Shown: piece by piece, positions 46,999 to 49,452 of the stretch
Layout of the letters: each line of letters begins with the position of its first letter
Position numbering within the stretch: the first letter of the stretch is position 1
Source of the DNA: Octopus vulgaris
Lineage: Eukaryota
Length of the DNA: 64,000 bases
Direction of reading: 5' to 3'
Assembly (NCBI GenBank): GCA_951406725.2
Contig: OX597839.1
Coordinates: 6,944,001-7,008,000 of the forward strand
Made by a program: the position numbers and the translations under genes
Notes under the pieces: model-generated
What the model was told of the DNA's origin: nothing
Seen by the model: only the letters and a program-made list of their open reading frames with translations
Databases searched by the model: none

Positions 46999-47236
46999 TA
47001 AATAAATGGAGTTGAACGCAGATGTTATTAAAATTCTTTTACTTTCGACATATGTTTCGAACAGTCATCGTAATTGTTATAATGTTTTGTTGTTGAGATA
47101 GGCTTTCTTTCTTTCCTGATGAGAAGATTGCATTTTACACCGTTTATTCCTTTGGAATAAAACCAATGTTGTCTTCGAAACATATGTCGAAAGTAAAATA
47201 ATTTTAATAACATCTGCGTTCAACTCCATTTATTTA
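46999..47236. repeat. Fold-back element with 63-bp arms (46999-47061 / 47174-47236)
   Basis: TAAATAAATGGAGTTGAACGCAGATGTT...TTTCGAA and its reverse complement, one mismatch seen. Confidence 0.9.
47111..47193 (+). ncRNA. Type I hammerhead ribozyme with intact core
   Basis: ctttc-CTGATGA-gaaga...tttattcc-ttt-ggaataaa...tcttc-GAAA-catatg-TC-gaaag; GUC cleavage triplet. Confidence 0.85.
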
Positions 47237-48986
47237 ATTATACTACACAAATTACTGCACATTAACCCGGAGTCTCTACCTTTGAATAGGTCGCTTCATC
47301 CGTGATACTTGCCTGAATTTTGCTACCCTGGTAACTGTTTATTGAATTTTCCATGTTAACGGTAAACAATAGATAATTCATTCATCCATTTATATATATA
47401 TATATATATATGCAGTGCTTTCTCATTTCTTCTCCGCTACATACCTACAAACATGTATGTAAGCATATGTGTAAGTGTATGTCTGTGTACTTACGTGCAT
47501 GTGTGTGTATTTATGTATCTCTTTGCGCGTGTGTATATACACATATGTATGTATATATATATATATATATATATATATATATATATAACATATGTATGTA
47601 TGTATATTATACGCTTACAGATGTGTGAAAGATACGTGTGCAAAAGTATTATATCCATACTGTGTGAGTGTGTGAATGTGTATATCTATATCTACATATG
47701 TGTGTGTATATGTATATATATATATATATATATATATATAGAAAGAGAGAGCGAGAGAGAGAGAGAGACCCTTCTACATACATATGTGTGTGTTCCCGTG
47801 CGTGTATTTTACGTCTATGCATGATCCGTTAGTGTCAGTTTTTACCATATCCATTCTGCTATACAATTCATTAGCCTCAAGATACGATATAATAAGCTAC
47901 TAATAGTTCTATACAGACGGTTACCAAAGCCATTGACTCTGTTTCTTTCATCTAAACATCAAAAAGAAATAAAACAACAAACATGCAACAAAATCACAAA
48001 CTAAACATACAAATAAAAACTAATTAAAAACAGAAGTTAAAAGGCAACGATAAAAAGTCTGAATGATTCAACTCAAAACAGACAGTTATAATGTGAAAGA
48101 TTTGCTAAAAACAGCAGTCAAACCCCCTTATATCTTAAAATTGCACGTCGCTCAGTAAAGAATTTATCCTTTGCATATATATTAGTTTTAACATAGGTTT
48201 TATTAGAAGAAAATGTCTGTAATATTTCGGACCCCCAGTTCTTCATATACATACATAAATTCATACATACATACATACATACATACATACATATATTATT
48301 ATTATGGCTGCCCCCTCGTTATCGAGTATGGCCATTACACGAAGCTTAACTGTTACTGGTGCTGTGATCGAATGTGTCTTTTTAGCCCAGCTAAAGATCT
48401 ACAATGTCTTGTACAGAATTGGCAACTAAAACCTTTACTGGTAATAGCCGGCTGTAGTTATAACTGGGATTCATATACCTTTGCATGTCGTTTAAGTCCT
48501 CCTGTCGATACATACATACATATATACACATGCATATTTACATACACATAATTACTTACATACATACACATACATGCATACATACATACATACATACATA
48601 CATACATACATACATACATACATACATACATACATACATACATACCTACATACATACATACCTACATACATACATACATACATATATATATATATATTAT
48701 GTGAAATAGAAAGATGAATAATCTTGTAGTAGATTCTAAGTAGATTTTTCTCGCCCCTTATAAAACATCCAATATTCCTTAAATAGTCAGAACTTTATTC
48801 TCGGTCACAAAGAACATCTACGCCCCCTCACCCACATGATTGACTGATGCCTGACCCGTTGAATTCTTCAGCCACCGGTTCTCAACATACACTGATAAAC
48901 AGTTTCGCCATGGGCTCTTAGGAGCATAGTTCGATTTGTTTTTGCTCCGCCTCTGTTCTGTTTTGTTTTTCCAACGGATTTCCTAT

Positions 48987-49075
48987 TTTCTTCCTGAAGA
49001 GAAAGACACAATATGGTCCCATTATTCCATCGGATTTTGGTAATTTGTGCCTTTCGAAACACGTGTAGAATGAAA
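48987..49075 (+). ncRNA. Type I hammerhead ribozyme, paralogue of 47111-47193
   Basis: tttcttc-CTGAAGA-gaaag-acacaa...ttgtgc-ctttc-GAAA-cacgtg-TA-gaatgaaa; same downstream ATCTGCGTTCA(A/G)CTCCATTT. Confidence 0.8.
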
Positions 49076-49452
49076 TAAAACGATTTCTGTTCAATCTGCG
49101 TTCAGCTCCATTTCTTCAATTCACCAATATATATATATATATATATATATATATATATATATATATATATATATATATATATATATATATATATATATAT
49201 ATGTAGTATTCTTCAACATGAAAGTTGCCGAGAGTGACTTCGAAGTTTTGGCCAGCAAACCTATCATCAGATCAGATGATGACTTAAGTGACCGAAGTTT
49301 CGAATTCATTCTCAACGATATTCTTGCTCAAGAAAAATTAAATTTGCTCTCAACTTATAATTTTGCTCATATAATGTCTCTACCAAGTAGCTGAAAAACT
49401 ATACTTTGCTTCTCTCTGCAGTGCATTTCTCATTATTCGAGAAAGCTGAGGT

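Follow-up and report, generated by a model that had tools for sequence, protein, structure and literature searches.

Long-armed type I hammerhead motifs at the ends of two truncated Penelope-like element insertions in Octopus vulgaris

Hammerheads in the terminal repeats of Penelope-like elements (PLEs) are already known. The type I hammerheads described for PLEs (2017 work, cited through PMC6765202) possess a CUGANGA/GAAA core, a palindromic stem III and a short stem I, and they occur in many dispersed and head-to-head copies. Hammerheads have also been published for the Hydra clade, one clade of the PLEs with a C-terminal endonuclease (EN+), which includes Hydra-1_Obim of Octopus bimaculoides (Craig et al. 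2021, PMC8557442). The minimal hammerheads of PLEs are described without tertiary contacts (PMC6155905), and other PLE hammerheads show weak cleavage as dimers (PMC4209133). The hammerhead of the anole element Poseidon PAc cleaves with the assistance of protein, with rescue by C3G/G8C, and is dispensable for insertion in vitro; this element uses two internal start sites of reverse transcription and nicks both strands (Frangieh et al. 2024, PMC11167929). In the RNA-seq data reported for the anole element, no reads begin or end at the cut site (PMC11167929). The published hammerhead descriptor provides for a stem II of 3–7 bp with a loop of 3–10 nt, so that its upper limit, 7 bp closed by a 10-nt loop, lies near 26 nt in total (PMC4209133 and its supplement).

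The two motifs described here share the core, the palindromic stem III, the short stem I and the dispersed and head-to-head copies with the PLE hammerheads, but they fall outside the published descriptor, and their stem II is a hairpin in two parts: a helix of approximately 12 bp is separated by an internal loop from a second, distal hairpin. Type I hammerheads with a weak stem III and a relation to the pLTRs of PLEs are also found in animal non-LTR retrozymes (PMC7229834; bioRxiv 10.64898/2026.07.22.740005). Those are short non-coding tandems (PMC7229834), whereas the copies found here are truncated ends of coding elements. Three features are new: a long stem II that covaries and predominates in the genome, a linker that has no zinc finger, and two termini, T1 and T2, that are strictly paired.

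The two motifs and the insertions that carry them

In the window, i.e. the whole 64-kb stretch of DNA that was analysed, motifs A and B (Table 1) were the sole two descriptor matches when both strands were scanned. In 200 block-wise dinucleotide shuffles of the window, the loose descriptor gave 0.025 matches per window and the strict descriptor none. This bears out the first-pass annotation, which had placed two type I hammerheads here. In both motifs CUGANGA, GAAA and NUH follow each other in order and stems I to III are closed, and the differing cleavage triplets and palindromes that had been read from the letters were found as claimed. Stem I of motif B has just three contiguous pairs, followed by a C.U mismatch and six more pairs. 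Including the tails, both motifs are identical at 86 of 132 aligned positions. The Rfam hammerhead models, with which a search had been proposed, matched neither motif at the gathering threshold or at E ≤ 10, and the long stem II insert is the likely cause.

Table 1. Features of the two insertions in the window (positions are those of the window).
Feature	Position	Strand	Remark
Motif A, type I hammerhead	47111..47193	+	descriptor, covariation
Motif A, stem I	47111-47115 / 47189-47193		CTTTC / GAAAG
Motif A, core	47116-47122		CTGATGA
Motif A, stem II insert	47123-47176		54 nt
Motif A, GAAA	47177-47180
Motif A, palindromic stem III	47181-47186		CATATG
Motif A, predicted cut	after C47188		GUC
Motif B, type I hammerhead	48984..49077	+	descriptor, fold computation
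Motif B, core	48994-49000		CTGAAGA
Motif B, stem II insert	49001-49055		55 nt
Motif B, GAAA	49056-49059
Motif B, palindromic stem III	49060-49065		CACGTG
Motif B, predicted cut	after A49067		GUA
Insertion A, inverted short arm	47000..47061	-	ends at short terminus T1
Insertion A, direct arm	47062..47392	+	3' UTR end, hammerhead, tag, ~150-nt tail to T2, then (TA)n
Insertion A, conserved terminal tag	47212..47231	+	just before T1
Insertion A, flanking TA/TG runs	46880-46999 and after 47392
Insertion B, inverted short arm	48691..48735	-	45 nt, from tail, ends at long terminus T2
Insertion B, direct arm	48735..49129	+	3' UTR/pLTR, hammerhead, tag, ends at T1 before (TA)38
Insertion B, conserved terminal tag	49094..49113	+	just before T1
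Insertion B, flanking (TA)n target microsatellite	49127..49202	no strand

The motifs are the 3' ends (pLTRs) of two separate 5'-truncated PLE insertions in (TA)n. Beside the direct arm, each insertion comprises an inverted piece that is absent from the first-pass annotation. The inverted arm of insertion A (62 nt) is complementary to approximately 47174-47236 (98% match over 63 nt), a span that comprises GAAA, stem III, the cut site, the 3' strand of stem I and the tag. The inverted arm of insertion B matches positions 8889-8933 of locus L061, which belong to the 5' UTR of a full-length unit, and the direct arm is 98–99% identical to full-length units. A downstream tag shared by both motifs had been reported and does exist at both; it proved to be the terminal sequence of the element before (TA)n. 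According to the mapped ends, it is located outside the predicted ribozyme helices, and it is likely part of a start signal of reverse transcription.

If insertion A is transcribed together with its inverted arm, the computed fold reaches -108.2 kcal/mol, compared to -78.9 kcal/mol for the hammerhead-constrained fold. In this model, the ribozyme of motif A would be sequestered in read-through transcripts in a long hairpin with its own inverted arm. As for the two copies in the window, both are likely dead ends.

A degenerate hammerhead-like stretch at about 46727-46800 failed the descriptor and matched none of the loci compared. Motifs A and B were also considered as a functional pair, but the heterodimer is weak (-3.0 kcal/mol) and the proximity is expected by chance: at a density of about one motif per 75–90 kb, chance should place two motifs less than 2 kb apart in hundreds of cases, and therefore the motifs were not treated as a pair.

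Parent elements and their likeness to the Hydra clade

The genome searched comprises 2.8 Gb in 227 contigs. Among hits that carry a species name, the closest was a protein of Argonauta, and the SINE-like and microsatellite content of the window also agrees with an octopus host. Family A, to which motif A belongs, yielded 1,820 first-look candidates, and the 40 scored were 96–97% identical, the window's own copy aside. For family B there were 943 first-look candidates, of which the top 40 scored were all 100% identical, and a 20-base anchor of this family had 1,241 genome matches. Four family B motifs form a tandem array on contig C1 at distances of 3,624 nt, and each 3,624-nt unit contains an ORF of 895 aa (frame of 899 codons). 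Of the RT matches scored (122), 20 retain the complete frame. Family B is very young, and intact ORFs are present in it.

The family B protein combines a telomerase-like RT and a putative C-terminal endonuclease-type domain in a single ORF. Telomerases were the best structural matches of the protein model (mean pLDDT 72; Foldseek E 2.6e-9), and the RT model (residues 55-484) aligned with telomerase at a Z of 16.4 (rmsd 2.9, 262 aligned), with which a DGR RT ties. Among the 50 matches listed for residues 55-484, no GIY-YIG fold was present. An endonuclease-only model (pLDDT 40) was too poor for a structure search; the motifs VYQC..YVG, R..H, E and N of this domain align with those of relatives at the level of sequence. 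A Pfam search of the ORF, endonuclease domain included, gave no match, a PDB sequence search gave 0 matches, and a search of a viral fold library returned generic polymerases only.

Of 30 family A loci, 7 have ORF remnants, which are located 190–359 nt upstream of the motif, and the endonuclease region is approximately 50% identical to that of family B. Family A is a sister subfamily of family B. Both represent the ends of one graded subfamily series, in which a single cluster holds 69 of 130 distinct motifs, and the pattern of this series gave 7,638 genome matches versus 0 for the reversed control. The non-coding ribozyme-bearing repeat family that had been proposed in the first-pass annotation thus gives way to protein-coding PLE subfamilies, which both motifs terminate and one of which has many intact frames. 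Within the 3' UTR of family B (L061:5830-6000, minus strand) there are short runs of CA and of TA as well as a piece similar to target-like sequence, which are also present in the tandem units and in other long copies.

With the Hydra clade (PMC8557442), the elements found here have in common the single RT–EN ORF, the change of DKG to DKT (QSDKT in family B), the absence of CCHH, and CxxC and CxH motifs, which flank the conserved E and N (CNLC..E and CPH in family B; CNIC..E and CKH in family A). Shared as well are insertion into (TA)n, inverted 5'-truncated arms and, at the 3' end, a type I hammerhead whose stem III is palindromic. The N-terminal RWK reads RWL in family B, and RW[KR] was found in 67 of 106 homologues. 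Unlike the elements described in PMC8557442, those found here occur in thousands of copies, with intact ORFs. The stem II inserts of 54–55 nt compare with at most about 26 nt in 26 Hydra-clade rows of File S2 of that publication (23 nt in Hydra-1_Obim), the family B unit of 3.6 kb compares with "generally <3 kb", and the tail of about 150–165 nt with 30–40 nt.

A further difference concerns the stretch that links RT and EN. Neither the family B frames listed (18 of 18) nor the family A fragments contain the zinc-finger-like motif CxCX5C, and in both families a low-complexity S/N/G-rich stretch takes its position; the motif was kept, by contrast, in 80 of 82 homologues and in 56 of 56 metagenome ORFs reaching the endonuclease. 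Because this motif is missing, the elements are called Hydra-like here, despite the other clade features; their resemblance to the Hydra-1_Obim protein was judged by eye. N-rich inserts between RT and EN in rotifer Penelopes are a precedent (PMC3846280). The zinc finger is tied to (TA)n targeting in PMC8557442 by association only. In 61 family B loci, all 107 classified ends, each of them T1 or T2, were TA-flanked despite the absent linker zinc finger.

The long stem II

Stem II lengths were surveyed with the genome pattern CTGANGA-Nx-GAAACANNTGT, for which raw matches are given, with slightly overlapping bins and decayed copies included. Inserts of x = 40-70 gave 25,026 matches (reversed-pattern control 169), x = 71-100 gave 6,637 (control 148) and the short inserts of x = 10-39 gave 6,595 (control 157), so that inserts of 40–100 nt are the majority form in the genome (31,663 pattern matches versus 6,595). 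The metagenome relatives present a different picture: 56 of 77 loci encoding relatives of the ORF have a sense-strand hammerhead, and all best inserts measure 10–29 nt. Stem II is therefore approximately 2–5 times as long here as in relatives, and the unusual length of about 55 nt to which the first-pass annotation had pointed stands.

No earlier report of a long-armed hammerhead population was found in the literature searched; long variants may be listed in Lunse et al. 2017, a work outside that literature. In the main text of the 2026 octopus repeat annotation (PMC13282606), "hammerhead" and "ribozyme" have 0 occurrences. A single-family precedent are the PLE-X1 hammerheads of Selaginella with a loop II of about 30–35 nt, two rows of which are marked as deviating in File S2 of PMC8557442; these belong to EN-less plant elements and are isolated instead of being the majority form of a genome, and no covariation is reported in those rows. 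In File S1 of the same publication, eight Naiad families, octopus and bobtail-squid ones included, are listed with hammerhead "half cores" 35–50 nt apart. Some of these may be long-arm hammerheads.

Fragments of Hydra-type ORFs were present in 4 of 45 loci of other long-arm families, and in 0 of 15 loci of one of them. Eight loci (L176, L181, L178, L185, L163, L174, L077 and L094) form one hammerhead lineage with common stems I and III, in which the stem II inserts measure 21, 28–29, 49–51 and 61 nt; from these sequences it appears as if the arm had grown stepwise at its tip. A second, apparently young family has an insert of about 85 nt and near-identical copies, often head-to-head (e.g. G000:C1:805331-805433). 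At locus L164 (G000:C1:5011306-5012441), a long-arm hammerhead is repeated three times in identical form with a spacing of 534 nt, as a retrozyme-like short tandem. In one metagenome relative (L320:2400), a U3-A8 variant of the hammerhead core was observed.

Structural conservation was assessed over 41 sequence clusters by shuffle tests, which ignore relatedness and, as the clusters are partly related, inflate significance. Stem I, which lies outside the search pattern, showed 124 of 164 Watson-Crick pairs versus 52 in shuffles (maximum 80 in 10,000). All catalytic core positions are kept, and the base at the cut site is non-G in 40 of 41 clusters. At the base of stem II, 123 of 180 pairs were formed in the 30 long-insert clusters (82 shuffled), and in 24 of these clusters the inserts had a better fold than their shuffles (z of -1.39 on average, compared with +0.05 for the control taken downstream).

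A closer view is given by 35 hand-picked sequences of the A–B lineage, for which the structure was drawn from motif A. In these, 89.5% of the cells pair, and 65 cells are changed on both sides versus 29 in shuffles (0 of 500 shuffles). Changes on both sides affect 9 of 20 pairs, a number reached by 7 of 500 shuffles, and extend along stem II as far as its pair 12. Further pair types showed no excess over shuffles (247 of 500), and among the 12 proximal pairs of stem II there are two that fail to form in 13 and 15 of the 35 sequences, respectively. Of the 35 sequences, 31 retain a distal ATTY/RAAT hairpin, and a helix scan of alignment A1 for a contact between stem I and loop II found no convincing pairing of insert and flanks. 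The double changes agree with the earlier claim that the structure is kept by compensatory change, and among genomic copies covariation is seen in stems I and II, kinship ignored in the shuffles. Among the positions proposed as compensatory in stem II, position 5 is well supported (AU 16, GC 14, GU 3 of 35), but position 4 is unpaired in 13 of 35. In view of these alignments, the long stem II is likely a folded and selected extension.

Integration, cleavage and alternative explanations

Counted from the cut site, copies end at two fixed 3' termini, T1 at +48 to +70 and T2 at +200 to +227, and (TA)n follows each terminus. From the anchor matches on contig C1, 61 family B loci were taken consecutively, with the tandem array left out; 46 were two-armed and divergent, and all of these (46/46) combined T1 and T2; the other 15 were single-armed or unclear. 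The same combination was found in 9 of 9 two-armed insertions of family A (30 loci). Tandem pLTRs, an inverted 5'-truncated arm and a tail at one end, which are PLE hallmarks, were all observed here, and a tail on one of two inverted pLTRs has already been described (PMC8557442, PMC3846280). When the two arms of an insertion were compared (36 pairs, 7,510 sites), 0.5% of the sites differed, versus 1.7% when partners were shuffled. This suggests that both arms derive from a single template or a single source locus; gene conversion between the inverted repeats could also account for shared arm variants.

The anole element PAc (PMC11167929) resembles families A and B in two internal start sites that define the tail, which are inferred for the octopus elements, in AT-rich targets and in uncut RNA as the main template. 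It belongs to another clade, has a short tail and shows no strand difference in the start site in vitro, whereas the genomic insertions studied here are always T1+T2. The 46/46 pairing is a sharp constraint on models of PLE integration.

With regard to cleavage, the predictions favour a dimer. The first-pass annotation had stated that PLE hammerheads with a palindromic stem III can cleave as dimers, which fits the palindromic centre in 33 of 41 clusters (TG in 4). Centres with TG, which form G.U pairs in a dimer, had 3,122 matches versus 405 for the mismatching CA, an excess that rests on few subfamilies. Stem III was computed at -7.0 and -10.3 kcal/mol in the homodimers versus +2.4 kcal/mol for the monomer hairpin. 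In monomers A and B the hammerhead fold is not favoured (probability of stem I ≤0.01; energies exceeding the minimum by 3.4 and 4.4 kcal/mol), and the single-strand folds of the two motifs were no better than shuffles (z -1.45 and +0.11). Most arms read through the predicted cut site. In a 61-locus sample, arm starts seemed to cluster between -20 and 0, but this failed genome-wide, where boundaries at the cut site were not enriched (14 versus 30 and 15 at two control offsets, a rough comparison as the patterns exclude different letters).

Taken as a whole, these data are probably best explained by hammerheads in the terminal repeats of two independent truncated Hydra-like PLE insertions, with conditional, dimer- or protein-assisted cutting and a selected stem II. 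The element protein would nick both strands of (TA)n, and reverse transcription would start at the two internal sites T1 and T2 of an uncut tandem transcript, one strand being primed at T1 and the other at T2, which would result in two divergent arms. The hammerhead would mostly be off during this step and would cut only when two copies pair via the palindromic stem III, likely helped by the element protein, whereby tandem or read-through transcripts would be trimmed to unit length. Such conditional self-cleavage, trimming tandem transcripts, is most likely its role.

The strongest competitor, to which we give somewhat less than an even chance, retains the hammerhead core but regards the long stem II as neutral growth, only the first few pairs being relevant: with no loop–loop contact to preserve, as also described for the minimal PLE hammerheads (PMC6155905), apical insertions would accumulate. 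The free variation of insert length between families (10–100 nt), and even within the lineage with common stems I and III (21 to 61 nt), is consistent with this, as is the lack of shared sequence between the inserts of unrelated families. Compensatory changes out to pairs 11–12 from the core (UA 16 / AU 13–14 of 35), the retained distal hairpin and the inserts below 30 nt in 56 of 56 relatives from other organisms argue for a selected arm instead. A reading in which the motif has ceased to work as a ribozyme and keeps its hammerhead-like sequence for another role, as a signal of structure or protein binding close to the starts of reverse transcription, appears clearly unlikely. It would explain the missing cleavage footprint in the copy boundaries, the arms passing through the cut site, the poor monomer folding and the anole reads that do not start or end at the cut site (PMC11167929), but not that all catalytic core positions and the non-G rule of the cut site are kept across clusters; moreover, the anole hammerhead cleaves with protein and is rescued by C3G/G8C (PMC11167929), and weak cleavage as dimers is known from other PLE hammerheads (PMC4209133).

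The stand-alone non-coding repeat of the first-pass annotation, retrozyme- or SINE-like, retains hardly any probability. Both window copies are without ORF, and short tandem hammerhead repeats with 534-nt spacing exist elsewhere in the genome; longer copies, however, run upstream into the RT–endonuclease ORF and show variable 5' truncation and inverted arms, and the full-length units refute this reading for both window copies. A non-LTR retrozyme was rejected likewise, as the units are coding and 3,624 nt in length and not short non-coding tandem repeats.

Beyond the selected stem II of the preferred explanation, we consider it a tentative and rather improbable idea that octopus-lineage PLEs turned stem II into a structured domain of 40–100 nt which gates cleavage or docks the RT–endonuclease, that the zinc finger was lost alongside, and that T1+T2 reflects a protein dimer priming both strands from one RNA. 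If this were true, such a domain would be present in most of the approximately 38,000 hammerhead-pattern matches, escaping the standard descriptor and Rfam, and the long arm of families A and B would accompany the loss of the linker zinc finger that is thought to direct (TA)n targeting. If the long arm is general in the lineage, most hammerheads of such genomes have escaped censuses that rely on descriptors, and the "half-core" motifs 35–50 nt apart in other PLEs merit re-examination. Family B, being young and with intact ORFs, is a test system for the need of dimer or protein, for the role of the long arm and for (TA)n targeting without the linker zinc finger.

Some further observations were made beside the hammerheads. 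At L067:3387-6335 (minus strand), an uninterrupted frame of 983 codons with periplasmic-binding, kinase-like and guanylate-cyclase domains was detected, which resembles an intronless receptor guanylyl cyclase. At 17151-17239 of the window (plus strand) there is a tRNA-like match scoring 39.9 bits, the anticodon loop of which contains an insertion. Copies of an abundant repeat, which we take to be SINE-like, are present at 49450-49700, 8086-8664, 18495-18968 and 36893-37307 of the window, some of them in tandems of 184–232 nt.
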